DNA of 64,000 nt from Rhizobiaceae bacterium. Lineage in GTDB: Bacteria > Pseudomonadota > Alphaproteobacteria > Rhizobiales > Rhizobiaceae. The notes beneath the pieces are model-generated. The model saw nothing but the letters and a program-made list of their open reading frames with translations, had not been told where the DNA came from and ran no database searches. Shown one piece after another: positions 4,943 through 60,758 of the stretch (its first letter is position 1; every line of letters starts with the position of its first letter). The DNA lies in the NCBI GenBank assembly GCA_040830725.1, contig JBFOMG010000004.1, positions 7,567 through 71,566 on the forward strand, in the 5' to 3' direction. A program made the translations under genes and the position numbers.

Positions 4943-5039
4943 GGCAGCACCTCGGTTCAAGCCGGAATATTGCAAGTAAGTTCGACCGGGGCGATCTGTC
5001 GACCGCCCCGGGAAAGGCAATGGGGACAAATGTGCGGCG

Positions 5040-5633
5040 TCAGCCGCCCTTTTGCCCGTATGCCGTGCCCCAGCCCCAGGCACCCGTACCGAATCCGCGG
5101 GCAACAACACGCTCGCGGTAGATGCCTGAAACCACATCGCCATCGCCGGCAAGCAGTGCCTTGGTCGAGCACATTTCTGCGCAAATCGGCAACTTGCCTT
5201 CAGCAATACGGTTGCGTCCGTATTTCTGGAACTCCGCCTGGCTATGGTTTTCTTCCGGTCCACCGGCGCAGAAGGTACATTTGTCCATCTTACCGCGCGA
5301 ACCGAAATTGCCCGCCTGCGGAAACTGCGGTGCTCCGAACGGGCACGCATAGAAGCAGTAACCGCAACCAATGCAGAGGTCCTTCGAATGCAGGACCACG
5401 CCATCGTCGTTCTGATAGAAACAGTCGACAGGGCATACCGCCATGCATGGCGCGTCGGAACAATGCATGCAGGCCACGGAGATCGACCGCTCACCTGGGC
5501 TGCCATCATTGATGGTGACCACCCGGCGACGATTGATACCCCAAGGTACTTCATGCTCGTTCTTACAAGCCGTCACGCAGGCGTTGCATTCAATGCAGCG
5601 TTCGGCGTCGCAGAGGAATTTTGCTCTAGCCAT
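5040..5633 (-). CDS. formate dehydrogenase beta subunit, 4Fe-4S ferredoxin-type
   Basis: 197 aa. CIECNACVTACK, CMHCSDAPC, CIGCGYCFYACP and CTFC cluster motifs. Confidence 0.9.
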   Translation of the reverse strand: MARAKFLCDAERCIECNACVTACKNEHEVPWGINRRRVVTINDGSPGERSISVACMHCSDAPCMAVCPVDCFYQNDDGVVLHSKDLCIGCGYCFYACPFGAPQFPQAGNFGSRGKMDKCTFCAGGPEENHSQAEFQKYGRNRIAEGKLPICAEMCSTKALLAGDGDVVSGIYRERVVARGFGTGAWGWGTAYGQKGG

Positions 5634-5644
5634 TATTTTTCTCC

Positions 5645-45273: not shown

Positions 45274-46284
45274 ATGTCGAATCCAATTGATGCACTTATT
45301 GCGGAAAAAGGTGTGTTGCTTGCCGATGGCGCCACTGGCACCAATTTGTTTGCGATGGGCCTGGAGGCCGGCGAAGCCCCGGAACTCTGGAATGAAAGCG
45401 CACCCGACAAGATCCGCGCCCTGCATCAAGGTTTCGTCGATGCTGGCTCTGATATCATCCTGACCAACTCTTTTGGGGGCACCCGCCACCGCCTGAAGCT
45501 GCATCATGCTCAGGACCGGGTGTTCGAACTCAACAAACTGGCCGCGGAAATTGCCTGCGAGATTGCTGCGTCGGTCGAACGGACAATAATTGTGGCCGGC
45601 TCGGTAGGACCGACCGGGGAGTTGCTCCAACCATTGGGCACGCTTTCCTTCGAACAGACCATAGATGCTTTTGTCGAGCAGATAGAAGGCTTGAAGGCTG
45701 GCGGTGCCGAAGTTGCCTGGATTGAGACCATGTCGGCGCCAGACGAAATCCGCGCTGCAGCAGAGGCGGCGATTCGCGTTGGCCTGCCCTACACCTATAC
45801 CGGTTCATTCGATACGGCTGGCCGAACCATGATGGGCCTTCTGCCAAAGGATATTCATGGTGTGAACGAGGATCTTGCGGGTAAACCGGTAGCCGTTGGC
45901 GCAAATTGCGGAGTCGGTGCGTCGGACATATTGGCATCATTGCTGGATATGACCGAAGCGGACGATGACGCAACAATTATCGTCAAAGGCAATTGCGGCA
46001 TCCCGGAATTCCGTGGCTCCGAGATTCACTATTCCGGCACACCGGAGCTGATGGCGGAATATGTTCGAATGGCAATCGATGGCGGAGCAAAGATCATCGG
46101 CGGCTGTTGCGGAACGTCCTGTGATCATTTGAAAGCCATGCGTGCCGCGTTGGATAGCCACACCAAAGGTGCCCGGCCGACAATCGAAGATATTACCGCG
46201 CGCATCGGCCCCATGCGCAACAAGATCGCCAATCAGAATGAGCAAAGCGGCAGCCGCCGCGAACGGCGGAGGCGGAGAGCCTGA
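45274..46284 (+). CDS. stand-alone homocysteine S-methyltransferase domain protein (annotated type: betaine-homocysteine methyltransferase / MetH Hcy-binding module)
   Basis: 336 aa. LLADGATGTNL, ILTNSFGG, GANCG and IIGGCCGTS (zinc-binding Cys) motifs. C-terminal tail SGSRRERRRRRA. Confidence 0.85.
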   Translation: MSNPIDALIAEKGVLLADGATGTNLFAMGLEAGEAPELWNESAPDKIRALHQGFVDAGSDIILTNSFGGTRHRLKLHHAQDRVFELNKLAAEIACEIAASVERTIIVAGSVGPTGELLQPLGTLSFEQTIDAFVEQIEGLKAGGAEVAWIETMSAPDEIRAAAEAAIRVGLPYTYTGSFDTAGRTMMGLLPKDIHGVNEDLAGKPVAVGANCGVGASDILASLLDMTEADDDATIIVKGNCGIPEFRGSEIHYSGTPELMAEYVRMAIDGGAKIIGGCCGTSCDHLKAMRAALDSHTKGARPTIEDITARIGPMRNKIANQNEQSGSRRERRRRRA

Positions 46285-48461: not shown

Positions 48462-49048
48462 TCTTCCCTGGCCCGTTTGGCCAAATCCTTGAGCCGCTTC
48501 TTCGCTTCATGGATGTGCCAGGAGATGGTCGTCTCGGCACATCCCAACACATCGCTCGCATCTCCGTGCGACAGGCCCTCGCCATAAACCAGCAATACCG
48601 CGTCGCGCTGTTTGGCGGGCAGTTGCTGTACCAGCCGCCACAGTTCTGCAGCTCGCGCTTCTTCATCACCGGCGCCGCTATCACCGAACAGCTTGCTGTG
48701 TTCACCCCAGGCCTCTGCCTTTACGGCCTCGCGATTGCTTTTGCGCAACAAGTCCCGGGCAGCGTTAATCGTCAATGCATAGAGCCAGGTGGTAAACCGG
48801 CTTTCGCCCTTGAAATTTTGGATTGCCCTGGCGAGCCGAACACAGACTTCCTGTGTGATATCCTCGGCGTTGGCACGATCGCCACACCAGCGCAGCGCCA
48901 CCCGAAAGACAAAGTCGTAGTGCCGCTCGACAAGCATGGCAAAGGCCGCACGGTCACCCTCGACCGCACGCCCCACCAATGCACCGTCTGACGTGGCATC
49001 CAACCCGCCTTCCGGCACCTCTGCTTCGGCAAGCGTCATGACCTTCAT
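48458..49048 (-). CDS. ECF-type RNA polymerase sigma-70 family factor
   Basis: 196 aa. Region 2 (HYDFVFRVALRW...AEDITQEV) and region 4 (LPAKQRDAVLLVYGEGLSHGDASDVLGCAETTISWHIHEAKKRL). Confidence 0.9.
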   Translation of the reverse strand: MKVMTLAEAEVPEGGLDATSDGALVGRAVEGDRAAFAMLVERHYDFVFRVALRWCGDRANAEDITQEVCVRLARAIQNFKGESRFTTWLYALTINAARDLLRKSNREAVKAEAWGEHSKLFGDSGAGDEEARAAELWRLVQQLPAKQRDAVLLVYGEGLSHGDASDVLGCAETTISWHIHEAKKRLKDLAKRAREE

Positions 49049-49102: not shown

Positions 49103-49801
49103 CTAATTCGGCGTGTTATTCGCCAAAAAAGCTGCCATGTGAAAGGCTTGAACCTCGGCTGGATACCGGTAATTGGCGCCGACGGGACACGAATTTCGGG
49201 CCAGGCAGCCAGTATTTCTGCAATGGCCATCATCTGCGGTTGAAACATGACCGGCGCAGCCCGCAACATCATAACCGTTCAGGGAGATTGCGCTAACAGG
49301 GCACGTGATCAGGCACGGCTTGTCTTCGCAATCATCGCATGGGTGGCTTGATTTTGGTGGTTGCGGAAGGCCAATCACATCATCAAACAACAATGCTCCA
49401 CGGTATGCATGCCAAAGCCCAAACTCGGGGTGAATCAGAATTCCCAAAGGTGACGGTCTCAACCCCTCTGCCCGACTTGCCCATTGCTGAAATGGCAGCC
49501 ATGGTTTGTCTGATGGAAACACAGCGCGTGCGGAACAGTCAGCAGCGACCACGCAAATGACTTCTCTCGACCACGTATCCAGAGGATTTTCTGGTTTATT
49601 TTTAAATTTTTGTAGCCATTTATTAAAGTGATTCCAATTTCCTGCGCCACGTTGTCCTACCAGCAATACGGACTTGGCAGGTTCGCTACGTATACCGGCT
49701 GGCGCATCCTCATCTTTTGCAAAATCGAAACCGCCTCGCAGAACAAGACCGTTTTCTGCCAGTGCCGCTGCTATCGATTTCAAAAAACCCGGTTCAGCCA
49801 C
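49103..49801 (-). CDS. ferredoxin-like protein with a C-terminal Cys-rich (4Fe-4S-type) region
   Basis: 232 aa. CDDCEDKPCLITCPVSAI followed by CAGH..CRNTGCLARNSCP. I do not recognise the N-terminal domain. Confidence 0.55.
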   Translation of the reverse strand: MAEPGFLKSIAAALAENGLVLRGGFDFAKDEDAPAGIRSEPAKSVLLVGQRGAGNWNHFNKWLQKFKNKPENPLDTWSREVICVVAADCSARAVFPSDKPWLPFQQWASRAEGLRPSPLGILIHPEFGLWHAYRGALLFDDVIGLPQPPKSSHPCDDCEDKPCLITCPVSAISLNGYDVAGCAGHVSTADDGHCRNTGCLARNSCPVGANYRYPAEVQAFHMAAFLANNTPN

Positions 49802-49865: not shown

Positions 49866-49885
49866 AGCCCGGCCGTCCTCGGGCT
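49866..49885. terminator. hairpin abutting the MttB stop codon (weak terminator candidate)
   Basis: AGCCCG-8 nt-CGGGCT. The T-run lies on the plus strand, not on the strand of the gene it follows, so the function is uncertain. Confidence 0.3.
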
Positions 49886-49889
49886 TTTT

Positions 49890-51455
49890 TCACGTGAAAG
49901 CGTCGGGCATCGATTCCTTTTTCTTGGCAATGAATGCCTGCAACGCTTCATCAATGCCCGCATCGAGTTCAGGGGCCTGATAGCTGCTCAACCATTGGCG
50001 CGCCAATTCATTGGCCCTTTGATTTGCGGCTTTCTCACCTTCGGCCTGCCATTGCTCAAACGAATTGTTGTCGGCAATTGTCGAACGGTAGAAGGCGGTC
50101 TGAAAGTTCGCCTGCGTATGGCTGCAGCCAAGATAGTGGCTGCCCGGGCCAACTTCGCGAATGGCATCCAGCGCCTGGTCGTTCTCGGTCAGCGAAACAC
50201 CCTCGGCGATGCGCTGTTGCATGCCCAGTTGATCGATATCCATCATGAACTTTTCGTAGGAACTGACGAGGCCGCCTTCCAGCCAACCAGCGGCGTGAAG
50301 GACAAAATTCGTCCCTGCGAGCACTGTGGAGTTGATTGTGTTGGCGCTCTCATAGGCAGCCTGTGCATCGCTCAGTTTCGAACCACACAAGGACCCACCG
50401 GTTCGAAACGGCAATCCCAGTCTGCGCGCCAATTGTGCGGCTCCATAAGACACGAGTGTTGGCTCAGGGGTGCCGAAGGTCGGCGCACCCGATTGCATGG
50501 AAATTGAAGAGGCAAAAGTGCCAAACAATACCGGTGCACCTGGCCGGACCAATTGCGTAAACGCCGCGCCTGCCAAAACTTCAGCCAGAACCTGGGTCAG
50601 CGTTCCTGCCACGGTGACCGGGCTCATGGCACCGGCGAGGATGAACGGTGCGATAATGCAGGCCTGGTTGTTGCGGGCGTAAACCTTGGCCGCTCCAACC
50701 ATTGTCTCGTCAAAAACCATTGGTGAATTTGCATTGATAAGGCTGACCAACACAGTGTTGTCGGTAACAAACTGCTCGCCGAACAGGATCTTGCACATTT
50801 CGACAGTGTCCTCGGCGCGTTCAGGCGCTGTGACCGATCCCATGAACGGCTTGTCGGAATAACGGATATGGGAATAGATCATGTCGAGGTGGCGCTTGTT
50901 GACCGGTATGTCCACCGGTTCGCACACGGTGCCGCCTGAGTGATGTATTGCCGGCGCCATATAGGCCAGTTTCACAAAGTTGCGAAAATCCTCAATGGTT
51001 GCATACCGGCGCTCACCTTCGAGATCGCGTACAAATGGCGGCCCGTAGACAGGCACGAAGACGGTCGCATTGCCGCCAATCTGCACCGATCTTTCGGGGT
51101 TGCGCGCGTGTTGCGTAAAAACCGGAGGAGCGGATTTGATCAGCGCACGACACAGGCCTTTTGGAAAATGAACTCTTTCACCCTTAACCTCGGCACCAGC
51201 GTTCCGCCAGAGTTCCAGCGCCTCGGTATCATCGCGAAATTCAACACCAATTTCTTCCAGAATCGTATCAGCGTTGGCCTCGATCAGAGCCAGACCTTCG
51301 TCATCAAGCACTTCAAACGGCTTCAATGCCCGCTTTATGTAGGTCAACTGCGTTCCCGGCCCGCCTCCGGATCGTGCGGCGCGCCGGGCGGCCGCACCGC
51401 CACCCGCACGAGCACTGCGCCTTGATCTTCCGCCGTCTGCAGAAACTTCGTTCAT
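49890..51455 (-). CDS. MttB-superfamily (trimethylamine methyltransferase family) non-pyrrolysine methyltransferase, probable quaternary amine:corrinoid methyltransferase
   Basis: 521 aa, uninterrupted frame with no in-frame TAG. Family-typical TIM-barrel segments. N-terminal Arg/Gly/Ala-rich leader GGRSRRSARAGGGAAARRAARSGGG. Confidence 0.88.
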   Translation of the reverse strand: MNEVSADGGRSRRSARAGGGAAARRAARSGGGPGTQLTYIKRALKPFEVLDDEGLALIEANADTILEEIGVEFRDDTEALELWRNAGAEVKGERVHFPKGLCRALIKSAPPVFTQHARNPERSVQIGGNATVFVPVYGPPFVRDLEGERRYATIEDFRNFVKLAYMAPAIHHSGGTVCEPVDIPVNKRHLDMIYSHIRYSDKPFMGSVTAPERAEDTVEMCKILFGEQFVTDNTVLVSLINANSPMVFDETMVGAAKVYARNNQACIIAPFILAGAMSPVTVAGTLTQVLAEVLAGAAFTQLVRPGAPVLFGTFASSISMQSGAPTFGTPEPTLVSYGAAQLARRLGLPFRTGGSLCGSKLSDAQAAYESANTINSTVLAGTNFVLHAAGWLEGGLVSSYEKFMMDIDQLGMQQRIAEGVSLTENDQALDAIREVGPGSHYLGCSHTQANFQTAFYRSTIADNNSFEQWQAEGEKAANQRANELARQWLSSYQAPELDAGIDEALQAFIAKKKESMPDAFT

Positions 51456-51756
51456 AGCAATCCCTCAGAGCCATTCTTAACGGTCCAATCGCCCGTTTTC
51501 CAGAATCGTAGTTGACGTCTCGCGTTGAACGTTTCCGCCAACGCCAAGGCGTGTCGCAAAAGCGATAAGGCAGCAAGTGCGGAACTCCAATTCGAGCTGT
51601 CCAACTACGCCATTCAGGGACAGGCAAGGCAAAGTGGCGTTATCGTCGTCGCGCACGTCGCAATCCGGCTATGCCATTGGCATCTGGAGGAAATATGGAT
51701 AGTGAAGATATCACCATTGCGCACTGCGCCGGGCGAATCTGAGGGAGCCTCCGGAA

Positions 51757-52455
51757 ATGTCTGATGACGAAATCATTCTGTCCGAACTGAGTGACGACGA
51801 GCTCGTGCCGCAGATGCACGATGATCTTTATGACGGGCTGAAGGAGGAAATCGAGGAAGGTACCCAGATTCTGCTCGATCGTGGCTGGATGCCTTATGAT
51901 GTACTGACCAAAGCTCTGGTCGAAGGTATGCGCATCGTGGGTGAGGATTTCCGTGACGGTATCCTGTTTGTGCCGGAAGTCCTGCTATCAGCCAATGCGA
52001 TGAAGGCTGGCATGGCGATTCTGCGCCCACTGCTTGCGGAGACCGGCGCCCCAAAACTCGGCAAGATGGTCATTGGTACCGTCAAGGGTGATATTCACGA
52101 TATCGGTAAAAACCTCGTCGGCATGATGATGGAGGGAGCCGGCTTTGATGTGGTCGATCTCGGCATCAACAATCCGGTCGAAAACTATCTCGAGGCCATT
52201 GAGCGCGAGGAACCCGACATTGTCGGCATGTCGGCATTGCTCACAACAACCATGCCCTACATGAAAGTGGTCATCGATACGATGGTTGAGAAGGGCATCC
52301 GTGACGACTACGTCGTGCTTGTAGGTGGCGCCCCGCTGAACGAGGAATTCGGCAAGGCTGTTGGAGCCGACGCTTACTGCCGAGACGCTGCTGTAGCGGT
52401 TGAAACCGCCAAGGAGTTCATGTCGCGCCGTCACAATCAACGCGCCACTGCGTAA
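51757..52455 (+). CDS. corrinoid (cobalamin-binding) protein, cap helical domain plus B12-binding Rossmann domain
   Basis: 232 aa. DxHxxG motif GDIHDIGKNLV, then SALLTTT and GGAPL. N-terminal 35 aa contain 14 Asp/Glu and 1 Lys. Confidence 0.9.
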   Translation: MSDDEIILSELSDDELVPQMHDDLYDGLKEEIEEGTQILLDRGWMPYDVLTKALVEGMRIVGEDFRDGILFVPEVLLSANAMKAGMAILRPLLAETGAPKLGKMVIGTVKGDIHDIGKNLVGMMMEGAGFDVVDLGINNPVENYLEAIEREEPDIVGMSALLTTTMPYMKVVIDTMVEKGIRDDYVVLVGGAPLNEEFGKAVGADAYCRDAAVAVETAKEFMSRRHNQRATA

Positions 52456-52558
52456 ACTTTTGGGCATTGGCCGAGACTCGGCCATATCGGCGAGTGTTCC
52501 CGGCTGTGCGGATCTCACAATTTGAGCAATGCAGGATGTGTATGCGGGCTACACATGC

Positions 52559-52605
52559 AAAAAAATACCGCGCCGCGATGCCGCCGCTTGGCACCGGGCG
52601 CGGTA
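52559..52605 (-). terminator. strong minus-strand intrinsic terminator with no confidently annotated gene upstream of it
   Basis: On the minus strand: TACCGCGCC...GGCGCGGTA (9 bp), extended by a 7-bp inner stem (CGGTGCC/GGCATCG with one G-U), then T7. Confidence 0.7.
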
Positions 52606-53173
52606 CACCGGGAAAGACCATGGGGCAACGGTCAAGTTGTCCGGTGTCAAACTGATCGGCCTTACGACAGGCCGTTAGTTTCGTTTCCGTCGCCAATTAT
52701 CCGTTTTGGCGATTCGACAGTGGCGGCCCCCCGCCGCTGTATTTCGTTTCGTTCCCATATATTCCTAAACCGGGCGAACCCCGCCATCATTTGACCGTCG
52801 ATGGTGATCGGCAACGAGCCTGGTCAGCATGGCCGAACCCTGTTCCGCGAAATGTTTCATCTGTGCGCGCCTGCAGCGGCGAACAGCACGACGATGTTGA
52901 ATTGCGTCTCTCCAATGGTGCGTCGAGCGCGGCTCCGTACGCTCAAAAACCGGCAGAATGTTTGGAAGTTCAATCGTGTAATCCCCAAACGTAGCCTGTA
53001 TCCCGTTCCTTCCTTGATGTAACTGGCCCATTTCATCCTCCCTGGGCAGGCGGTTGCCATCGCCTGAATTCATCACTACATGCATCCAACTGCTGCGTAC
53101 GTGAATTAAATCACACAACGTCGTGAATTCTCCGTGATATTTCACCGGTCGGCCACTGCCCAGGAGTTGGAAA

Positions 53174-53815
53174 TTGGACATTTCGACCCGAAAGAAGAGG
53201 CAAAACGGCGAAATCCGGACCCAAAAGGTCCGAATAATTGCCTGTGGAATGATCGCTCGTGAAGTTCTTGCAGTTAAAGAACGTCACGGACTGGAAAACC
53301 TGGATCTGGTGTGTTTACCGGCGCAATTTCACTATTACCCGGATCGTATCGCCCCGGCGATGGAAGAAGCGATTCAGCAGGCAAAAGAGGAAGGCGTTGA
53401 GCACATACTCGCCGGATATGCAGATTGTGGAACCGGCGGGCATCTTGATCTTGTCTGTGAAAAATACGGCATAGACCGAATCGACGGTCCTCATTGTTTT
53501 GCGTTCTATCAAGGCATGAAGTCCTACGAACAGGTTGCTGACGAGGACATGACGGCGTTCTACATGACTGATTTTTTGTGCCGGCAGTTTGACGCTTTTT
53601 TCATGAAACCGCTTGGCCTTGATAAGCACCCTGAACTGGCGAGCGACTATTTCGGCCACTATGAGAAACTGGTGTATCTTGCTCAGACGGATGACCCGTC
53701 TCTCGACCAGGTGGCTGAAGACGCGGCCAGAATGTTGGGACTTCGATACGAGCGTCGATATACGGGATATGGCGATTTGACGACATCACTGTTGGCCGCC
53801 ACCGCGACGCCATGA
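53174..53815 (+). CDS. DUF1638 domain protein
   Basis: 213 aa. VRIIACGMIAREV N-terminus and GYADCGTGG motif as I remember for DUF1638. TTG start 7 nt after AGGAG. Confidence 0.75.
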   Translation: MDISTRKKRQNGEIRTQKVRIIACGMIAREVLAVKERHGLENLDLVCLPAQFHYYPDRIAPAMEEAIQQAKEEGVEHILAGYADCGTGGHLDLVCEKYGIDRIDGPHCFAFYQGMKSYEQVADEDMTAFYMTDFLCRQFDAFFMKPLGLDKHPELASDYFGHYEKLVYLAQTDDPSLDQVAEDAARMLGLRYERRYTGYGDLTTSLLAATATP

Positions 53816-53915
53816 ATGTGTTATAGTGTGTGCGCCAGTTAACAGCAGATTTACGGGCGCGATGTAATCTTGTGCAGGGTATTTACCCACGCATGCGCGC
53901 CGAGGCATATGGACC

Positions 53916-54551
53916 ATGGACGACCTGACTGCTGACAGTGCCTTAAGAGCCAGCCCTGCGCCCCGGCGCCTGTCGGTGATAATCTCCCAACTGGCACAAA
54001 ATGCGACCGGTCCCGTGTCCATCGAGCAGATTCGCGATGCTTTGGGCGACCGGTCTTTTGCGGCAATGCTGGCGTTTTTCGCTGTATTGAACCTTGTGCC
54101 CTTCCCTCCAGGTACGACGTTAATCCTGGGACCGCCCCTGGTCATTGTCGCGGTCCAGATGGCGCTCGGCCACCATCGAGTGTGGTTGCCGAAATTTGTG
54201 CTTCGAAAATCCGTCAGCCGTGAGCGCTTCGTAGCCATGACTGAGCGGCACCTTCCAAGACTGCTGCGTTTGGAGACTTTGATTCGGCCGCGGCATTGGC
54301 CCTTTACCGACAGTGGTTTGGCTGATCGAATCATTGGATGGTTTGCGCTTGTTCTCTCCATTGCGGTCACCATCCCAATCCCCCTCGGCAACTGGCTGCC
54401 TGCACTCGGTATCCTGTTGATTGCATTCGCACTTTCCGAGCGTGACGGAATCCTTTTCTATGCTGGGGTGTTCGTGGGCACGTTGGCACTTGTTGTCATC
54501 GCTGCGGTGATTGGTGCTGCTGGAGCAGCCGCAGGCATTCTGTTTGGCTGA
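53916..54551 (+). CDS. ExoD-family membrane protein
   Basis: 211 aa. LGDRSFAAMLAFFAVLNLVPFPPG and TM-rich C-terminus are typical of ExoD. Confidence 0.8.
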   Translation: MDDLTADSALRASPAPRRLSVIISQLAQNATGPVSIEQIRDALGDRSFAAMLAFFAVLNLVPFPPGTTLILGPPLVIVAVQMALGHHRVWLPKFVLRKSVSRERFVAMTERHLPRLLRLETLIRPRHWPFTDSGLADRIIGWFALVLSIAVTIPIPLGNWLPALGILLIAFALSERDGILFYAGVFVGTLALVVIAAVIGAAGAAAGILFG

Positions 54552-54684
54552 AACCCGGTTTTCCCAGTTCATACGCCCGCGTCGTTTTTGAATTTGCCGG
54601 TGTCGTCCTGTAAACAGCGGCAAAGCGGCCCTTCCGGCAATTGTCCGCGCAACTATCAGGCCGCTGTTTTGTTGGGAACTGACC

Positions 54685-54987
54685 ATGGCTGATCTCACCA
54701 TCGTCTATTGGCGCGATATTCCCGCGCAGGTCATTGTCAAGAAGGGTCGCGCAAATGCCAAGCGCGAACTTCCGCTTCGATTCACAGAAGCAATTGATAT
54801 GTGTGCCATGCGTTCCGGTGCTGACGATACCGATGCCTATCTCGCCGAATGGCGCCGGGGAGAACCTGTTTCAGTTGGAGATGACCTCGAGATCGAAGCT
54901 GACAAGGCGATGAACGAAATCGATTCCGCCTATCCCAAGGATCGGCTGGTGGCGTTGGTCAATGCCGGTGGTATCGACAATGGCTAA
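54685..54987 (+). CDS. small conserved protein of the family usually annotated 'virulence factor' domain, found next to MTHFR_C genes
   Basis: 100 aa. MADLTIVYWRDIPAQVIVKKGR. Overlaps the next gene by 8 nt (ATGGCTAA). Confidence 0.55.
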   Translation: MADLTIVYWRDIPAQVIVKKGRANAKRELPLRFTEAIDMCAMRSGADDTDAYLAEWRRGEPVSVGDDLEIEADKAMNEIDSAYPKDRLVALVNAGGIDNG

Positions 54988-55564
54988 AAATACACCAATC
55001 GTCACTCAGGCAACCAAGGTGCGTAAAGCCGCGCCAAAGCTTGCGTATAAACCGGCGCATGTCAGTCCGACTCAACGGTTGCGCAAGGGATATACAATCA
55101 GGCTTTGGTCGGTACGGCATTCCCGCAGCCTGGAGTGGCTCTATGAGCAGTTCGCCAATATCTTTTTGATGCTGCACCCATTCTGGAAGGCGGTCGGCTA
55201 CCATCGCGCCGAAAAGCCGGTGACGTTTGTGGAAAGGCGTGTCAAGGGCCTATTGTTCGACTGCCGCATGTGTGGACAGTGCATCTTGTCGTCGACGGGC
55301 ATGTCTTGTCCCATGAATTGCCCAAAACAGCTTCGCAACGGCCCATGCGGTGGCGTTCGTGCTGACGGCAATTGCGAAGTCGAGCCTGACATGCCTTGTG
55401 TTTGGGTTCAGGCGTGGGAAGGCGCTGAGCGCATGCGGGAAGGTGAGCAGAACCTCGCAGCAGTGCAAAAGCCGGTCGACCAATCTTTGCGGGAAACCTC
55501 TTCCTGGTTGCGGGTAACGGCATCTGCAGCGGCTGAACGAGCCGCCAAGAATGGTGGCAAGTAA
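54980..55564 (+). CDS. methylenetetrahydrofolate reductase C-terminal-domain protein (MetV-like, Cys-rich)
   Basis: CRMCGQCILSSTGMSCPMNCPKQLRNGPCGG motif. ATG at 54980 preferred over track start 54962. Confidence 0.8.
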   Translation: MAKNTPIVTQATKVRKAAPKLAYKPAHVSPTQRLRKGYTIRLWSVRHSRSLEWLYEQFANIFLMLHPFWKAVGYHRAEKPVTFVERRVKGLLFDCRMCGQCILSSTGMSCPMNCPKQLRNGPCGGVRADGNCEVEPDMPCVWVQAWEGAERMREGEQNLAAVQKPVDQSLRETSSWLRVTASAAAERAAKNGGK

Positions 55565-56667
55565 TGCAAAACGGTAAGCGACCACCTCAACGGGACGAAA
55601 ATCCAGCCGGTATCGATCTGCCGCTCGATCCACTGCCCGGCCATACATCACGCAGCCGTCTTGAGCGGATTCTTCGCCGTGGAGAGTTTGCTGTCACAAC
55701 CGAACTCAACCCTCCAGACAGCGCCAATCCGGAGGACGTCTACGAGCGCGTAGCCATCTTCGATGGCTGGGTCGATGGTATCAACGCTGTCGATGCGTCG
55801 GGTGCAAACTGCCACATGTCTTCTGTCGGCATCTGCGCGCTTCTGACCCGCATGGGTTATGCACCGATCCTGCAAATTGCTTGTCGTGACAAAAACCGTA
55901 TTGCCATTCAGGGTGACGTGCTCGGCGCTGCTGCCATGGGTGTTGCCAACATACTCTGCCTGACCGGAGATGGCGTGCAGGCAGGAGACCAACCTGGCGC
56001 AAAGCCCGTCTTCGATCTCGATTGCATGAGCCTTTTGGAGACCATTCGCACCATGCGCGATGAGTCGAAGTTTTTGTCAGGCCGCAAACTGACGACGCCG
56101 CCGGAAGTATTTCTGGGCGCGGCAATCAATCCGTTTGCCCCGCCCTATGATTTCCGCCCGCTGCGTCTGGCAAAGAAGATCGCGGCCGGTGCCCAGTTCG
56201 TTCAAAGCCAGTATTGCTTTGACGTGCCGATGTTCCGTGAATACATGAAACGGGTCAACGACATGGGGTTGACCGAGGAGTGTTTCGTGATGTGCGGCGT
56301 CGGTCCCCTGGCTTCAGCCAAGACCGCACGTTGGATCAGGTCAAATGTTCCCGGAATTCATATCCCCGACCAGGTTATCGAACGGCTGGAAGGCGCCGAA
56401 AACCAAAAGCAGGAGGGGAAGCGTCTTTGCATCGACATCATCAATGAGGTCAAAGAGATCGAAGGCGTATCCGGCGTCCACGTCATGGCCTATCGGCAGG
56501 AAGAGTTTGTTGCTGAAATCGTCCACGATTCCGGTGTGTTGAGGGGTCGCAAGCCATGGCAACGTGAACCCCGCGCTGACGATGTGCTGGTTGCCGAAAG
56601 GTTGGAAGAAGTATTGCAGAATCCATCCGCGGAAAGCCCCGCGGATGTCATCAGGGACACCGTCTAG
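55564..56667 (+). CDS. metF: methylenetetrahydrofolate reductase catalytic subunit
   Basis: 367 aa. FAVTTELNPP, ILQIACRDKNR and ILCLTGD motifs. TAATG overlap with the MetV-like gene. Confidence 0.88.
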   Translation: MQNGKRPPQRDENPAGIDLPLDPLPGHTSRSRLERILRRGEFAVTTELNPPDSANPEDVYERVAIFDGWVDGINAVDASGANCHMSSVGICALLTRMGYAPILQIACRDKNRIAIQGDVLGAAAMGVANILCLTGDGVQAGDQPGAKPVFDLDCMSLLETIRTMRDESKFLSGRKLTTPPEVFLGAAINPFAPPYDFRPLRLAKKIAAGAQFVQSQYCFDVPMFREYMKRVNDMGLTEECFVMCGVGPLASAKTARWIRSNVPGIHIPDQVIERLEGAENQKQEGKRLCIDIINEVKEIEGVSGVHVMAYRQEEFVAEIVHDSGVLRGRKPWQREPRADDVLVAERLEEVLQNPSAESPADVIRDTV

Positions 56668-56692
56668 CGACGGTTGAAACCAATCACACAGC

Positions 56693-56714
56693 GATATAAA
56701 GAAATCTTTATATC
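56693..56714. promoter_or_regulatory. 22-bp palindrome GATATAAAGA-AA-TCTTTATATC, candidate operator immediately upstream of the pterin-binding methyltransferase gene
   Basis: 10-bp perfect arms read directly from the sequence. It lies between the metF stop (56667) and the ATG at 56728, and has the same core as the site at 45226-45241. Confidence 0.5.
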
Positions 56715-56727
56715 ATTGGAGAAAATA

Positions 56728-57702
56728 ATGACACGCACAGTCGTAGCATCCGCCTCAAAAGAGATCATCATCGGTTTCGACCAGCCATTCTGCGTCATCG
56801 GTGAGAGAATAAATCCGACCGGTCGAAAAAAGCTCGCCGCGGAGATGAATGAAGGCAACTTTGAAACCGTCAAGAAAGACGCACTTGAGCAAGTCGCCGC
56901 TGGTGCAACAATGCTCGACGTCAATGCAGGTGTCACCGCTGTTGATCCAAACGTGACCGAGCCTCCGCTTCTCGTAAAGACGCTGGAGATCGTTCAGGAA
57001 CTCGTCGATGTGCCGCTCTCGATCGACAGCTCCGTAACGGCTGCAATCGAGGCTGGCCTCAAGGTTGCCAAGGGCCGTCCTCTGGTCAACTCGGTTACCG
57101 GTGAAGAGGAAAAGCTCGAAGCGATTTTGCCTCTGATAAAGAAATACGACGTGCCGGTTGTCGCTATCTCCAATGATGAAACGGGAATCTCCGAGGACCC
57201 GGATGTGCGCTTCGAGGTTGCCAAGAAAATTGTTGAGCGTGCCGCCGATTTTGGCATTCCCGCACATGACATTGTTGTCGATCCGCTGGTGATGCCGATC
57301 GGTGCAATGGGCACTGCGGGAAAGCAGGTGTTTGCACTGCTGCGCCGCTTGCGCGAAGAACTCAAAGTCAACACGACCTGCGGTCTTTCCAACATCTCGT
57401 TCGGCCTGCCGCACCGGCATGGGATCAATGCGGGCTTCATTCCGATGGTTATCGGCGCCGGCATGACATCGGCCATCATGAATCCCTGCCGCCCGCAGGA
57501 GATGGAGGCTGTCCGCGCCGCAAATGTTCTGAACGGAACTGATCCGGACTGCATGACCTGGATTCGCACTTACAAGGACTATCAGCCGCATGCGCCTGGT
57601 GCACCGGCCGCGGCCAATGCCAATCCGGCCGCCAGTGGCGCGTCGGGCGGACGTTCGGGCCGCCGTGGCGGCCGCGCAGCCAGAGCTGGCGCGAGGGGCT
57701 AG
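56728..57702 (+). CDS. methyltetrahydrofolate:corrinoid methyltransferase (pterin-binding domain, MtrH/AcsE/MetH-module type)
   Basis: GERINPTGRKK, LDVNAG, SIDSS, VNSV and GLSNISFGLP motifs. C-terminal tail SGGRSGRRGGRAARAGARG. GGAGAA RBS. Confidence 0.88.
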   Translation: MTRTVVASASKEIIIGFDQPFCVIGERINPTGRKKLAAEMNEGNFETVKKDALEQVAAGATMLDVNAGVTAVDPNVTEPPLLVKTLEIVQELVDVPLSIDSSVTAAIEAGLKVAKGRPLVNSVTGEEEKLEAILPLIKKYDVPVVAISNDETGISEDPDVRFEVAKKIVERAADFGIPAHDIVVDPLVMPIGAMGTAGKQVFALLRRLREELKVNTTCGLSNISFGLPHRHGINAGFIPMVIGAGMTSAIMNPCRPQEMEAVRAANVLNGTDPDCMTWIRTYKDYQPHAPGAPAAANANPAASGASGGRSGRRGGRAARAGARG

Positions 57703-57808
57703 AGCAATCTCGAATGTTCAACCGGAAACCGGGAAGACGGTTCTGACGATATTGGAAAGCCGTCTTCCGCACGAGCCAACACGCATCAATTGCGACGACA
57801 GCTCTGCC

Positions 57809-58000
57809 ATGGATGCACAGACGATATGCTTCGCAGACCGCGATACGGGTGAGGAATTCGATCACTTTCTTGCCGACACGGCCGTGAAAGATGAAACGAT
57901 CTTCCTGCGCACAGACGACGTTGCAAAACTTGTTGATCCGACAACGGAAGTGGTGATTTATGACGCCGTCGCGGATAGTGAAAAGCGATGGCGGAAATGA
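57809..58000 (+). CDS. possible 63-aa acidic protein between the methyltransferase and activase genes
   Basis: ATG-initiated part of track ORF 57590..58000: MDAQTICFADRDTGEEFDHFLADTAVKDETIFLRTDDVAKLVDPTTEVVIYDAVADSEKRWRK. Its stop overlaps the activase start by 13 nt. No clear RBS. Confidence 0.3.
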   Translation: MDAQTICFADRDTGEEFDHFLADTAVKDETIFLRTDDVAKLVDPTTEVVIYDAVADSEKRWRK

Positions 58001-60033
58001 CCGATCCCCTCATTCTCTTCATGCCATCGGGCAAACGCGGGCGATTTCCCGCGGGAACGCCCATTCTCGATGCGGCGCGCGAACTGGGCGTGTATGTGGA
58101 GAGCGTCTGCGGTGGACGTGGCATCTGCGGGCGTTGCCAGATCGAAGTCCAGGAAGGCCAATTCGCCAAACATGGCATTACCTCAGCCAAGGACCACATT
58201 TCACCGGTCGGTTCGAAGGAAACCCGTTACGCCGAAAAGCGTACGTTGAAGCCGGGACGACGCCTCTCCTGTTCATCGACCATCATTGGAGATCTCGTTA
58301 TCGATGTGCCTGCCGATGCGCAGGTCAACGAACAAGTCGTGCGCAAAGCAGCGATCGATCGTGTCATCGAACGCAATCCCGCCGTTCAGCTTTGCTATGT
58401 CGAGGTTGACGAACCCGACATGCACAAACCGCTTGGAGATCTCGACCGTCTTGAGGCGGTTTTGGAAGCCGATTGGGGCTGGAAGGACCTCCTTGTTTCC
58501 CAACATCTGCTCCCGGATGTGCAGAAGATACTGCGTAAGGGCGGCTGGGCAGCAACTGCCGCCATCCACATGGATTTGGAATCGTCGCGGCCGTCAATCG
58601 TTGCACTATGGCCTGGTTTGAAAAACGAAGCCTATGGAATTGCTTGCGATATCGGCTCGACCACGATCGCCATGCACCTTGTGTCGCTGCTTTCCGGCCG
58701 GATCATCGCGTCTTCCGGTACATCCAATCCGCAGATCCGTTTTGGCGAAGACCTGATGAGCCGGGTTTCATATGTAATGATGAATCCGGACGGGCGCGAA
58801 GCCATGACCAGGGCGGTTCGCGAGGCAATCAACGATCTCATAGCGAAAGTCTGCGAGGAAGGTGGGATCACACCCGAAGACATTTTGGACGCGGTGTTCG
58901 TCGGCAATCCGATCATGCATCACCTGTTTCTCGGAATTGACCCGACCGAGCTGGGCCAGGCTCCGTTCGCGCTTGCCGTGTCTGGTGCGGTTCATACCTG
59001 GGCAAGCGAGATTGGTCTCGACATCAATCAGGGTTCGCGTGTGTACATCTTGCCGTGCATTGCCGGTCATGTAGGCGCCGACGCCGCAGCCGCCACGTTG
59101 TCTGAAGGGCCGCACCGTCAAGACAGCATGATGTTGTTGGTCGATGTCGGAACCAATGCAGAGATCGTGCTGGGAAACTCAAACCGTGTTGTGGCAGCCT
59201 CATCTCCGACCGGCCCGGCTTTCGAGGGTGCTGAAATATCGTCAGGGCAACGGGCAGCGCCTGGCGCCATAGAACGGGTGCGCATTGATCCGGAAACCCT
59301 GGAGCCGAGATTTCGGGTTATCGGCGTGGACCATTGGTCTGACGAAGAAGAATTTGCCGATGCAGCCGAGAAGACTGGCGTCACCGGCATTTGCGGTTCT
59401 GCAATCATTGAAGTTGTCGCCGAGATGTACCTGGCAGGCATCATCTCCGAGGATGGTGTCGTCGACGGAAGTCTCGCTGCAAGAAGTTCCCGGATCATCG
59501 CCGACGGCCGAACCTTCTCCTATCTGGTTCACGAGGGGAACCAGAAAATCACCGTTACCCAGAATGATGTTCGCGCCATACAGCTGGCAAAGGCAGCACT
59601 TTATGCGGGCATCAAGCTGTTGATGCAAAAACAGGATGTGGAATCCGTTGACGTCATTCGCTTCGCTGGTGCGTTCGGCTCCTTCATTGATCCGAAATAC
59701 GCAATGGTTCTGGGATTGATCCCCGATTGCGATCTCGGCGAGGTGAAGGCTGTCGGCAACGCCGCCGGAACCGGCGCTCTCATAGCATTGCTCAATCGAG
59801 ACTACCGGCGTGAGATCGAGACCACAGTCCGCAGAATCGAGAAAATCGAAACCGCCCTAGAGCCGGACTTCCAGCAATTATTCGTCAACGCGATGGCGAT
59901 GCCAAACAAGGTCGATCCTTTTCCCAAATTGGGGAAGCAGGTGGCACTGCCGGAGCGCAAAGTGCTTGAAACTGCGGAGACCAATGGAGGAAGACGCAGA
60001 CGGCGCGACGGCGGGCGGCGCAGTCGCAGTTAG
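57988..60033 (+). CDS. corrinoid reductive activase (RamA/RACo type): N-terminal 2Fe-2S ferredoxin plus ASKHA ATPase domain
   Basis: 681 aa. CGGRGICGRCQIEV plant-type ferredoxin motif. DIGSTTIAMHLV and VDVGTNAEIVLG ASKHA phosphate-binding motifs. C-terminal tail GGRRRRRDGGRRSRS. Confidence 0.88.
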   Translation: MAEMTDPLILFMPSGKRGRFPAGTPILDAARELGVYVESVCGGRGICGRCQIEVQEGQFAKHGITSAKDHISPVGSKETRYAEKRTLKPGRRLSCSSTIIGDLVIDVPADAQVNEQVVRKAAIDRVIERNPAVQLCYVEVDEPDMHKPLGDLDRLEAVLEADWGWKDLLVSQHLLPDVQKILRKGGWAATAAIHMDLESSRPSIVALWPGLKNEAYGIACDIGSTTIAMHLVSLLSGRIIASSGTSNPQIRFGEDLMSRVSYVMMNPDGREAMTRAVREAINDLIAKVCEEGGITPEDILDAVFVGNPIMHHLFLGIDPTELGQAPFALAVSGAVHTWASEIGLDINQGSRVYILPCIAGHVGADAAAATLSEGPHRQDSMMLLVDVGTNAEIVLGNSNRVVAASSPTGPAFEGAEISSGQRAAPGAIERVRIDPETLEPRFRVIGVDHWSDEEEFADAAEKTGVTGICGSAIIEVVAEMYLAGIISEDGVVDGSLAARSSRIIADGRTFSYLVHEGNQKITVTQNDVRAIQLAKAALYAGIKLLMQKQDVESVDVIRFAGAFGSFIDPKYAMVLGLIPDCDLGEVKAVGNAAGTGALIALLNRDYRREIETTVRRIEKIETALEPDFQQLFVNAMAMPNKVDPFPKLGKQVALPERKVLETAETNGGRRRRRDGGRRSRS

Positions 60034-60044
60034 CGTGTAGTGGA

Positions 60045-60758
60045 ATGGCCCATCCGAAGGCTTTGATATTCGATGTTTTTGGCACCTGCGTCGACTGGCG
60101 CCAAGGTGTTGCCAATGAAGCTGCAAGCTGGTTTGCCGAACTGAATATTGATGCCGATCCAGTTGCTTTTGCCGCTGCCTGGCGCGGAGAGTATCAGCCG
60201 GCGATGGAGCGTATCCGTTCGGGAAGCCGGGGTTATAGCGATCTGGACGACCTGCATCTGGAAAATCTCGATATCGTCCTGGATCGATTCAGAATCGCGA
60301 ACCGCTTTGATGAAGCTGCGCGCAAAGCCTTCAATCGCGCCTGGGAAAAACTGCCTCCTTGGCCTGATACCGTTCCGGGTCTTGCTGCAATTCGGCAACA
60401 AGCGATCATTGCGCCCTGCTCCAACGGTTCAATCGCGCTGATGACCCATTTGGCACGTTACGCGAAATTGCCCTGGGATTGCATCGTCGGCGCCGGGGTT
60501 GCCCGTGACTACAAGCCAAAGCCGGTTGTTTACCTGGCGTCGTGCCGGGCGCTTCGGCTGGAGCCGGAAGAAGTCATGATGGTCGCCGCGCACAATGATG
60601 ACCTGGCCGCAGCTGAGGCTTGCGGACTGATGACAGCGTTCGTCGCGCGGCCAACCGAGCATGGTACTGGCCAAACAAGCGACCTTGCCCCATCGAAAAA
60701 GTGGACGGTCAGCTCCAACGACTTTCTCGAATTGTCCGGGCAACTGGCTCATATTTGA
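60045..60758 (+). CDS. HAD-superfamily hydrolase, type II haloacid dehalogenase-like
   Basis: 237 aa. ALIFDVFGTCVDW (DxFGT nucleophile motif), SNGS and AAHNDDL motifs. Confidence 0.8.
   Translation: MAHPKALIFDVFGTCVDWRQGVANEAASWFAELNIDADPVAFAAAWRGEYQPAMERIRSGSRGYSDLDDLHLENLDIVLDRFRIANRFDEAARKAFNRAWEKLPPWPDTVPGLAAIRQQAIIAPCSNGSIALMTHLARYAKLPWDCIVGAGVARDYKPKPVVYLASCRALRLEPEEVMMVAAHNDDLAAAEACGLMTAFVARPTEHGTGQTSDLAPSKKWTVSSNDFLELSGQLAHI

Follow-up and report, generated by a model that had tools for sequence, protein, structure and literature searches.

Does a 10-kb stretch in an aerobic alphaproteobacterium encode one module for methyl transfer and methyl oxidation, and which compound would it demethylate? 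We analysed this locus within the window, i.e. the whole 64-kb stretch of DNA. The 10-kb stretch is a real and complete vitamin B12-dependent demethylation system for glycine-betaine-type compounds, and the region very probably represents the aerobic cobalamin-dependent MtgBCDE system as it occurs in Rhizobiaceae. HMM and PDB matches supported the reading as one module, as did conserved synteny across 65 related loci and the published genetics of the homologous system (PMC12478193, PMC5764234, bioRxiv 10.64898/2025.12.19.695462). The view that such systems are characterised only in anaerobes is out of date, as aerobic MtgBCDE was described in 2025, with mention of a co-located Sinorhizobium meliloti cluster. 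The cluster is not new: the system was described from aerobic alphaproteobacteria in 2018-2025, and the locus is therefore an ordinary new example of it. Two fresh leads were found, namely orf232, with a CblC/QueG/RdhA fold, and the PF13769 gene, which always lies directly upstream of an MTHFR gene.

Protein family identities, cofactor motifs and a conserved gene order were observed for the following features.

45274..46284, + strand: mtgE, 'Bhmt'-type homocysteine S-methyltransferase (Pfam S-methyl_trans, 203.7 bits)
49103..49801, - strand: orf232, conserved 232-aa protein (synteny, predicted fold)
49890..51455, - strand: mtgB, non-pyrrolysine MttB-superfamily methyltransferase (Pfam MTTB, 790.9 bits)
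51456..51756, no strand: divergent mtgB/mtgC intergenic region (conserved sequence blocks)
51757..52455, + strand: mtgC, corrinoid (cobalamin-binding) protein (Pfam B12-binding_2 and B12-binding)
53174..53815, + strand: DUF1638 protein (Pfam DUF1638, 85 bits)
53916..54551, + strand: ExoD-family membrane protein (Pfam ExoD, 166 bits)
54685..54987, + strand: PF13769 ('Virulence_fact') small protein (Pfam, 91.6 bits)
54962..55564, + strand: MetV-like Cys-rich subunit, MTHFR_C/DUF5981 (Pfam DUF5981, 95 bits)
55564..56667, + strand: metF2-type methylenetetrahydrofolate reductase (Pfam MTHFR, 113 bits)
56728..57702, + strand: mtgD, pterin-binding methyl-THF:corrinoid methyltransferase (Pfam Pterin_bind, 98.6 bits)
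57988..60033, + strand: ramA/RACo-type ATP-dependent reductive activase, 2Fe-2S and ASKHA (Pfam Fer2, RACo_linker, Raco_middle and RACo_C_ter)

All nine genes named in the initial annotation were uninterrupted ORFs at the coordinates it gave, and profile searches matched every family it named far above the cut-off. Its claim that the module is complete within 49890-60033 did not hold for that range: orf232 lies outside it, and so does mtgE, which was missing from the earlier gene list. The latter is 3.6 kb from mttB, with unrelated genes for an ECF sigma factor and for a VWA protein in between. No betaine transporter, dimethylglycine or sarcosine genes were found in the 64-kb window.

The comparison set comprised 80 genome loci, all from the narrow group of Rhizobiaceae and Phyllobacteriaceae, 65 of which span the cluster and include Sinorhizobium, Mesorhizobium, Phyllobacterium, Hoeflea and Rhizobium. 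The order mttB-orf232 on one side and mtgC-DUF1638-(variable)-PF13769-metV-metF-mtgD-ramA on the other was kept in the spanning loci. In all loci mttB and mtgC form a divergent pair, and no other gene is linked to mtgC as tightly as mttB. The two conserved blocks remain adjacent although their junction took repeated insertions. ExoD occupies the junction in 28 of the 65 loci, and elsewhere a DUF4893, BA14K, epimerase or formyltransferase-like gene is found there; ExoD is thus probably a passenger between the blocks and outside the system, in agreement with the earlier remark on an odd passenger. Between mtgC and DUF1638 lies a non-conserved insert of 718 bp with terminator-like hairpins, and therefore co-transcription of the whole plus-strand set is not assured. 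The divergent mtgB/mtgC intergenic region is presumed to be a promoter/operator region. It has conserved columns in an alignment of 76 sequences, a 35-bp block (51535-51569) that matches Mesorhizobium/Aminobacter loci, and the motif GTCGCAA twice on the plus strand, near 51553 and 51657. No Rfam families were detected in the window.

The mtgB ORF has no internal stop and residues 5-521 of its product align with PDB 4yyc (949 bits, 83% identity), which confirmed it as a non-Pyl MttB homologue. The 4yyc chain, a putative trimethylamine methyltransferase, is presumably an S. meliloti protein. The closest PDB chains of known function were two glycine betaine enzymes (427 and 426 bits), with 427 bits to Desulfitobacterium hafniense MtgB (2qne/9yce) as compared to 129 bits to the trimethylamine enzyme MttB (7xcl). 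Of the betaine-binding residues of MtgB (Y97, R312, H348 and F356; PMC13080624), the first three correspond to Y137, R351 and H387 here and are invariant in 120 homologues. The fourth is replaced by Gly395, here and in all 120; an invariant Trp391 stands four residues before it and may or may not take the place of F356. Based on these likenesses we infer that the mtgB product is a probable glycine betaine:corrinoid methyltransferase. The initial annotation held that the substrate could not be read from the sequence; glycine betaine indeed stays unproven, but the literature assigns it to this cluster and three of the four binding residues are kept. The 2025 papers name the S. meliloti homologue MtgB, by homology, and our literature search found no experiment on the system for any member of the Rhizobiaceae. 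A knock-out phenotype has been reported for mtgB1, and S. meliloti is stated to have mtgBCD (bioRxiv 10.64898/2025.12.19.695462). In Mesorhizobium alhagi, salt raised the expression of an mttB gene, a possible orthologue of the one here, 14-fold, along with that of fhs and of genes for betaine uptake, and the mttB mutant showed no salt phenotype (PMC4302635).

MtgC carries a DIHDIG motif at residue 112 and is 84-93% identical across related loci; its nearest NCBIfam models are MtgC-type corrinoid proteins, with scores below their cut-offs. MtgD matched NCBIfam PRK07535 (405 bits, cut-off 259) and gave 136-142 bits to MeTr (2yck) and the folate domain of Thermotoga maritima MetH. Its start is more likely the ATG at 56728 (324 aa, as called for the source contig) than the TTG at 56674 of the ORF list. 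MetF matched the MTHFR half of NCBIfam PRK08645 (196 bits), and its MTHFR matches in the PDB were distant only. The metV stop overlaps the metF start (TAATG), and the PF13769 ORF runs 26 nt into the start of metV. Residues 101-146 of the MetV-like protein hold 8 Cys. The PF13769 gene was present in 64 of the 65 loci, always directly upstream of an MTHFR gene; in locus L006 the MTHFR gene right after it is a different one, without a MetV. Searches for PF13769 gave no PDB relative and no literature match; we propose that its product may be an accessory of the MetF2 reductase. In Ruegeria pomeroyi no protein is induced more strongly on N-osmolytes than the MetF2 encoded next to mtgD (PMC12478193), and the proposed direction of MetF2 is the oxidation of methyl-THF to methylene-THF.

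The activase aligned over its full length with RACo (3zyy, 324.5 bits) and has Cys41/47/50/95. Like RACo, AcsV and RamA it consists throughout of 2Fe-2S ferredoxin, linker, middle and ASKHA domains. Its NCBIfam scores were below the cut-offs for both AcsV (383, cut-off 800) and RamA (116, cut-off 500), and it is therefore assigned to a separate subfamily serving MtgC. The DUF1638 gene, also found in 64 of the 65 spanned loci, encodes a protein with invariant residues C24, C47, C85, C95, C108, C136, H53, H107 and H152; its AF2 model (pLDDT 83) gave no significant fold match in the PDB. The initial annotation gave DUF1638 no role, which no longer stands: Phaeobacter inhibens DUF1638 mutants are methionine auxotrophs, DUF1638 co-occurs with a RamA-like protein (PMC5764234), and in R. 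pomeroyi betaine induces it (PMC12478193). DUF1638 is genetically tied to B12 reactivation and methionine-synthase function.

Downstream of mtgB, by 88 bp and on the same strand, lies orf232, which accompanies MttB in 76 of the 80 loci at a median spacing of 130 bp. A profile search gave no Pfam match. Its AF2 model (pLDDT 89) was found by Foldseek to be most similar to human MMACHC (E 1.4e-5, TM about 0.55), followed by QueG and RdhA, so that the predicted fold matched only three groups of B12 proteins, MMACHC/CblC, QueG and reductive dehalogenases. Sequence similarity was marginal (phmmer to MMACHC, E 0.005; profile E 0.1). Like QueG and RdhA, the protein has 8 Cys, all invariant and suited to two [4Fe-4S] clusters; unlike the members of the three groups, it is only 232 aa long. 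The model thus suggests a CblC/QueG/RdhA-like cobalamin-binding fold with a probable di-[4Fe-4S] domain, and orf232 is a candidate B12-processing, B12-reducing or B12-sensing accessory.

In the proposed mechanism, the methyl donor would be a carboxylated quaternary amine, with glycine betaine as the most likely one; MtgB would transfer one of its methyl groups onto Co(I) of MtgC, and MtgD would pass this group to tetrahydrofolate. MetF2/MetV (54962-56667), probably with the PF13769 protein, would then convert methyl-THF to methylene-THF for C1 oxidation or assimilation. MtgC at Co(II) would be returned to Co(I) by the RamA/RACo-type activase using ATP, and DUF1638 may also take part in this repair. 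With MtgE present (45274-46284; NCBIfam NF005718, 556.6 bits, cut-off 338), which has zinc-ligand-type Cys212, Cys278 and Cys279, the locus would also be a split methionine synthase, in which the MtgC/MtgD pair runs in reverse and MtgE methylates homocysteine. MtgD is bidirectional in the published model. [quoted passage not shown] MetF2, RamA and DUF1638 are induced on N-osmolytes (PMC12478193), and a split methionine synthase with RamA-like and DUF1638 proteins was described in P. inhibens (PMC5764234).

The balance of these roles could be different, with the locus acting primarily as an anabolic split methionine synthase of MtgE, MtgC and MtgD, reactivated by RamA and DUF1638, and with the MttB homologue and a reductive, methyl-THF-supplying MetF as auxiliaries. 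We consider this rather unlikely. MTHFR normally works reductively, MtgE here has zinc-ligand Cys, and in 60 of the 80 loci an mtgE gene is found at a distance of 0.3-9 kb from mttB. Methionine prototrophy of P. inhibens also needs exactly the corrinoid, pterin-binding, homocysteine methyltransferase, RamA-like and DUF1638 proteins (PMC5764234). However, anabolic and catabolic roles are not exclusive, both being part of the published model, and the tightest partner of mtgC is mttB, whereas mtgE stands apart behind unrelated genes. On N-osmolytes R. pomeroyi MtgE falls while MetF2 rises most, and a classical metH is usually also present in Hyphomicrobiales with mtgBCD (PMC12478193), so that a purely anabolic role would be redundant.

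The catabolic reading could also hold with another substrate for MttB: proline betaine/stachydrine, carnitine, gamma-butyrobetaine, choline or a plant- or alga-derived betaine. Stachydrine is among the betaines that rhizobia encounter in the rhizosphere. The residue lost here and in the 120 close homologues, F356, is one of two aromatics caging the betaine nitrogen in MtgB; this pair differs among MtcB, MtpB, MthB and MtyB, while R312 and H348 are common to all acid-substrate enzymes (PMC13080624), and mtgCD genomes often hold as many as seven MttB paralogues, presumed to act on other substrates (PMC12478193). Against this, Y97 is conserved, the nearest chains of known function are glycine betaine enzymes, the S. 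meliloti homologue is labelled MtgB, and growth of S. meliloti bhmt mutants on betaine persists when methionine is supplied, which points to a second betaine demethylase (PMC12478193). Another substrate is therefore possible but doubtful, and glycine betaine is preferred. Far less probable is that the synteny was simply inherited and reflects no functional link, with the MttB/corrinoid pair as one system and the MetF/pterin/RACo block as another that happens to lie beside it in one family. MttB and a corrinoid protein need a second methyltransferase and an activase for turnover, and the blocks have stayed adjacent through repeated insertions, although all 80 loci come from one narrow group and unrelated genes fill the junction. 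R. pomeroyi and P. inhibens have these genes at scattered sites (PMC12478193), but in Rhodobacterales the parts are co-induced and genetically co-required whether scattered or clustered (PMC12478193, PMC5764234).

[quoted passage not shown] 2025, PMC12478193; Price et al. 2018, PMC5764234) has the same protein families as the locus here (MtgB, MtgC, MtgD, MtgE, RamA-like and DUF1638), a MetF paralogue adjoining mtgD and an aerobic alphaproteobacterial host; by protein family, the MtgB here is a putative counterpart of SPO2108 / PGA1_RS07270. In contrast to that system, the genes here are clustered in about 15 kb rather than scattered, MetF comes with MetV-like and PF13769 genes, and a gene for a CblC-fold FeS protein follows mttB. 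In S. meliloti the mtgBCDE cluster is the SMc04325 'bhmt' region, where MtgBCDE and two reactivation modules are co-located (PMC12478193). Four Sinorhizobium loci (L040, L041, L044 and L046) have the same gene order as here, with a junction lacking ExoD and, in L040, holding a BA14K-like ORF. The anaerobic glycine betaine system MtgABC of D. hafniense and Methanolobus vulcani follows the same logic of MT1 (MttB family), corrinoid protein, MT2 and RamA, and the MT1 here gave 427 bits to its MtgB, with Y97, R312 and H348 kept but not F356. The locus differs from it in the aerobic host, in an MT2 of the MeTr/MetH-folate-domain type and in the link to methionine synthesis via MtgE, and in phylogeny the aerobic type of MtgC is distinct from that of anaerobic MtgABC (PMC12478193).

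Profile searches recovered every ORF that the initial annotation had named, at the same coordinates, and each of the named families was matched in Pfam far above threshold. The genes of the cluster are as follows.

Genes of the cluster, with position in the window, strand and family support
45274-46284 (+), mtgE, homocysteine S-methyltransferase; PF02574, 203.7 bits; NF005718, 556.6 bits, above cut-off
49103-49801 (-), orf232, 232 aa; no Pfam family
49890-51455 (-), mttB (mtgB); MTTB, 790.9 bits
51757-52455 (+), mtgC, corrinoid protein; B12-binding_2 and B12-binding (PF02607 and PF02310), above cut-off
53174-53815 (+), DUF1638 protein; 85 bits
53916-54551 (+), ExoD; 166 bits
54685-54987 (+), PF13769 ('Virulence_fact') protein; 91.6 bits
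54962-55564 (+), MetV-like protein; MTHFR_C/DUF5981 (PF12225), 95 bits
55564-56667 (+), metF; MTHFR (PF02219), 113 bits
56674/56728-57702 (+), mtgD; Pterin_bind, 98.6 bits
57988-60033 (+), ramA, activase; Fer2 and three RACo domains (linker, middle, ASKHA), above cut-off

MttB is encoded by an uninterrupted ORF of 521 aa, and its residues 5-521 were aligned with PDB 4yyc at 83% identity. The 4yyc entry, for which a literature search found no paper, is presumably an S. meliloti protein. Against the Pyl-MttB equivalog TIGR02369 the protein scored 285.6 bits, with the cut-off at 525. Since the ORF has no internal stop and stays below this cut-off, MttB is a non-Pyl member of the family, as had been claimed from the sequence. 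A Pyl-type trimethylamine methyltransferase was excluded on the same grounds and by the match to the true trimethylamine enzyme 7xcl, which reached 129 bits. The closest PDB chains of known function were those of the D. hafniense glycine betaine methyltransferase MtgB (2qne and 9yce, ~427 bits).

In D. hafniense MtgB the betaine site is formed by Y97 and F356 (cation-pi) and by R312 and H348 (carboxylate) (Picking et al. 2026, PMC13080624). Mapped through the PDB alignment, Y97, R312 and H348 correspond to Y137, R351 and H387 of MttB, each of which is invariant in 120 homologues. F356 corresponds to G395, also invariant in these homologues, with an invariant W391 four residues before it. The initial annotation had held that the substrate could not be read from the sequence. 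This was too cautious in that the three retained residues and the closeness to MtgB point to glycine betaine as the best guess from sequence comparison, if only tentatively, with F356 replaced by glycine. Salt induced an mttB gene of Mesorhizobium alhagi ~14-fold, along with fhs and genes for betaine uptake, and the mttB mutant was without a salt phenotype (PMC4302635). This gene may be the ortholog at L009, one of the related loci.

The other parts of the methyl-transfer chain were also assigned by family. The corrinoid protein consists of a stand-alone B12 cap and B12-binding domain with an intact DxHxxG motif (DIHDIG at residue 112), and its nearest NCBIfam models are of the MtgC type. MtgD matched NCBIfam PRK07535 (methyl-THF:corrinoid methyltransferase) with 405 bits, above the cut-off of that model, and its PDB matches were MeTr and the folate domain of T. 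maritima MetH. The activase matched RACo (3zyy) over its full length with 324.5 bits, and four ferredoxin cysteines were found at positions 41, 47, 50 and 95 in addition to the complete set of Pfam domains. The MTHFR catalytic gene and the Cys-rich metV gene, whose product has eight cysteines, are adjacent and overlapping in a MetFV-type arrangement (PF02219 and PF12225), with metF being only distantly related to solved MTHFRs in the PDB comparison. The overlaps between the PF13769 gene and metV (26 nt) and between metV and metF (TAATG) fit translational coupling.

Scanning a single genome of each species, we obtained 80 loci, almost all from Rhizobiaceae and Phyllobacteriaceae (Mesorhizobium, Sinorhizobium, Phyllobacterium, Aminobacter, Hoeflea, Shinella, Pararhizobium and Rhizobium), with MttB being 75-86% identical across them. 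In tblastn searches with the window proteins, 65 of these loci were found to span the cluster, all with constant gene order. An identical MttB is annotated from a Rhizobiaceae MAG, and the protein is also encoded on a Logan contig that shares this order. DUF1638 and PF13769 were each present in 64 of the 65 spanning loci, the RamA-like activase (RACo) in 60, and MetV and MetF in 56 each. In 60 of the 80 loci, mtgE is found at a distance of 0.3-9 kb from mttB. The module had been described as complete within 49890-60033; the listed genes were indeed all there, but the homocysteine S-methyltransferase at 45274-46284 lies outside this range and had been missed. It belongs to NCBIfam NF005718 'betaine--homocysteine S-methyltransferase', the family of S. 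meliloti SMc04325. With this gene included, the locus combines a demethylase with a split methionine synthase. Between orf232 and mtgE there is an ECF sigma factor gene (48458-49048, -) overlapping by 4 nt with the gene of a 693-aa vWF_A/VWA/YfbK_C protein (46380-48461, -), and over half of the related loci have the pair at the same place.

Methionine synthesis in Phaeobacter inhibens depends on a split B12-dependent synthase of three parts, namely a homocysteine methyltransferase together with a pterin-binding and a corrinoid protein. It additionally needs a RamA-like and a DUF1638 protein, a pair found together across the alphaproteobacteria, S. meliloti among them (Price et al. 2018, PMC5764234). 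N-osmolytes induce the MttB-family proteins MtgB1/2, RamA, DUF1638 and MetF2, a MetF paralogue beside mtgD, and SMc04325 of S. meliloti has been reinterpreted as MtgE (Mausz et al., PMC12478193). For P. inhibens, a 2025 preprint describes a phenotype of the mtgB1 deletion, and it also reports mtgBCD from S. meliloti (bioRxiv 10.64898/2025.12.19.695462). That MtgC and MtgD are needed for both betaine catabolism and methionine synthesis is reported for R. pomeroyi and P. inhibens only (PMC12478193; bioRxiv 10.64898/2025.12.19.695462). [quoted passage not shown] Based on the published systems, the identity to 4yyc and the gene order shared with the Sinorhizobium loci (L040, L041, L044 and L046), the locus is a rhizobial MtgBCDE cluster. 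The initial interpretation as a corrinoid-dependent methyl-transfer and methyl-oxidation module was therefore correct in substance, and corresponds to this published system.

ExoD, which had been called an odd passenger, is located between DUF1638 and PF13769 in 28 of the 65 spanning loci, and elsewhere the same junction contains DUF4893, a BA14K-like ORF, an epimerase or a formyltransferase-like gene. This variable content divides the cluster into two conserved blocks, mttB-orf232 | mtgC-DUF1638 and PF13769-metV-metF-mtgD-ramA, separated by a variable spacer in which ExoD is indeed a passenger. The gene of a type II haloacid dehalogenase (60045-60758, +; TIGR01428, 145 bits), which begins 12 bp downstream of ramA, adjoins the cluster in one other locus only (L001) and is probably unrelated to it.

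The divergent intergenic region of mttB and mtgC contains conserved blocks and two copies of GTCGCAA, ~100 bp apart, with one conserved block at 51535-51569 and the second copy at ~51657; the pair may be an operator. A scan of the whole window at Rfam gathering thresholds gave no cobalamin or other riboswitch and no family at threshold. Across 160 related loci nothing matched the 718-bp stretch between mtgC and DUF1638 (52456-53173), which contains two GC-rich terminator-like hairpins (52657-52674 and 52717-52740) and is probably a strain-specific insertion remnant. ORFs of 138, 90, 136 and 63 aa in this gap and in the 285-bp gap before ramA were without a Pfam match and without a counterpart in the 160 related loci, and were thus treated as non-coding or strain-specific. 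Between mttB and orf232 there is a GC-rich hairpin (49866-49885) followed by a T-run on the plus strand. As a canonical mttB terminator it was rejected, because on the minus-strand transcript an A-run precedes the stem.

The orf232 gene starts 88 bp past mttB, which it accompanies in 76 of the 80 loci at a median spacing of 130 bp. Source annotations call the product 'hypothetical' or '4Fe-4S dicluster domain-containing', and a Pfam search at E ≤ 0.001 gave no match. The protein has eight invariant cysteines. Its AF2 model (pLDDT 89, pTM 0.86) matched only one cobalamin-protein fold in Foldseek, that of MMACHC/CblC, the epoxyqueuosine reductase QueG and reductive dehalogenases. All 16 matches at E ≤ 0.001 were MMACHC/CblC, with the human and worm proteins at the top (E 1.4e-5 to 5e-4, TM ~0.55) and with QueG and then RdhA coming after. 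A nitroreductase-like B12-binding core was thus recognisable in the predicted structure. Support at the sequence level was marginal (phmmer to MMACHC, E 0.005 over 38 residues; profile, E 0.1), and no significant membership in MMACHC PF16690 or an equivalent family was obtained with Pfam, phmmer or profile searches. An ordinary ferredoxin was also considered and was rejected, as the best-conserved N-terminal 150 residues fold like CblC and not like a ferredoxin.

The orf232 family comprises 1743 cluster representatives at E ≤ 1e-3. An HTH_3 domain is found at the N-terminus of several members, and one member matches Pfam MMACHC below threshold. The HTH-bearing representatives P0266, P0269, P0286, P0294, P0299 and P0346 (~350 aa, XRE-type HTH) suggest a ligand- or redox-sensing transcription factor built on a CblC-like/FeS module, and such fusions, which occur in other bacteria, point to a variant of the orf232 domain that senses B12 or redox state. 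A metagenome scan for distant orf232 loci returned mostly close relatives, and another context was found only in three loci (L153, L156 and L158). There the homologue is separated by ~2 kb from another MttB paralogue (39-40% identity), indicating that the link to MttB is not only inherited synteny. In these three loci (4463-9817 in L158) it is located upstream of the paralogue, which has Ala at the Y97 position. L158, the only annotated one, has the homologue beside an AraC/DJ-1 (GbdR-like) regulator, a DAO oxidoreductase and solute-binding proteins, with two intervening ORFs of 198 and 350 aa without a Pfam family.

DUF1638 had initially been listed as having no assigned role. Genetically it is needed in P. 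inhibens (PMC5764234), but its AF2 model (pLDDT 83) had no significant match among PDB folds (best E 5e-3, best TM 0.47) and a profile search gave no sequence match. The invariant Cys24, Cys47, Cys85, Cys95, Cys108 and Cys136 together with His53, His107 and His152 hint at a possible metal or redox site. For PF13769 no PDB relative was found, and a literature search gave no paper naming the family. Its gene is always followed directly by an MTHFR gene. In the Phyllobacterium locus L006 and in seven other loci the MetV/MetF pair has been replaced; L006, which was the one examined, lacks MetV and has a different MTHFR-family protein of 305 aa directly after PF13769 (4887-6096). This position before an MTHFR gene even where MetV is missing suggests that PF13769 partners the reductase, perhaps as a dedicated small subunit of MetF2, for which oxidation of methyl-THF is the proposed direction.

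The rest of the window contains PutA, class I fumarase, a lipid A acyltransferase, Moco biosynthesis genes and a molybdopterin oxidoreductase, a content that fits an aerobic or facultative heterotroph. This is consistent with the aerobic setting read initially from PutA, class I fumarase and lipid A genes. No betaine transporter, dimethylglycine or sarcosine genes were found in the 64-kb window. The 964-aa molybdopterin oxidoreductase is encoded with a cytochrome b561-like membrane protein and a WD40 and cytochrome c fusion protein (2394-8539, -), and a tryptophan-halogenase-family gene lies at 25928-27499 (+); these genes are unrelated to the cluster.

This kind of system has already been described and the locus mainly confirms published work, with the residual novelty being orf232 and PF13769. 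No orf232-type protein is mentioned in PMC12478193 or in bioRxiv 10.64898/2025.12.19.695462. Our tentative proposal, which we consider possible but would not yet favour, is that orf232 is an undescribed Fe-S-dependent component for cobalamin processing, loading or sensing in aerobic corrinoid methyltransferase systems, and that PF13769 is the dedicated small subunit of MetF2. In such a scheme orf232 would strip the upper ligand from incoming cobalamin, or reduce it, before hand-over to MtgC. Should orf232 indeed act on cobalamin meant for MtgC, the human B12-processing enzyme MMACHC would have a bacterial counterpart that depends on iron-sulfur clusters.

The cluster agrees with published work in placing B12-dependent betaine demethylation coupled to methionine synthesis outside anaerobes and marine Rhodobacterales as well, and the trait is conserved and tightly clustered in soil- and plant-associated Rhizobiaceae and Phyllobacteriaceae. 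In the model organisms the loci are scattered, whereas the cluster in the window is compact, with every known part side by side. It is useful since these known parts stand next to two conserved uncharacterised proteins, so that orf232 and PF13769 are seen as partners in the compact rhizobial cluster, which the scattered loci of the model organisms do not reveal.
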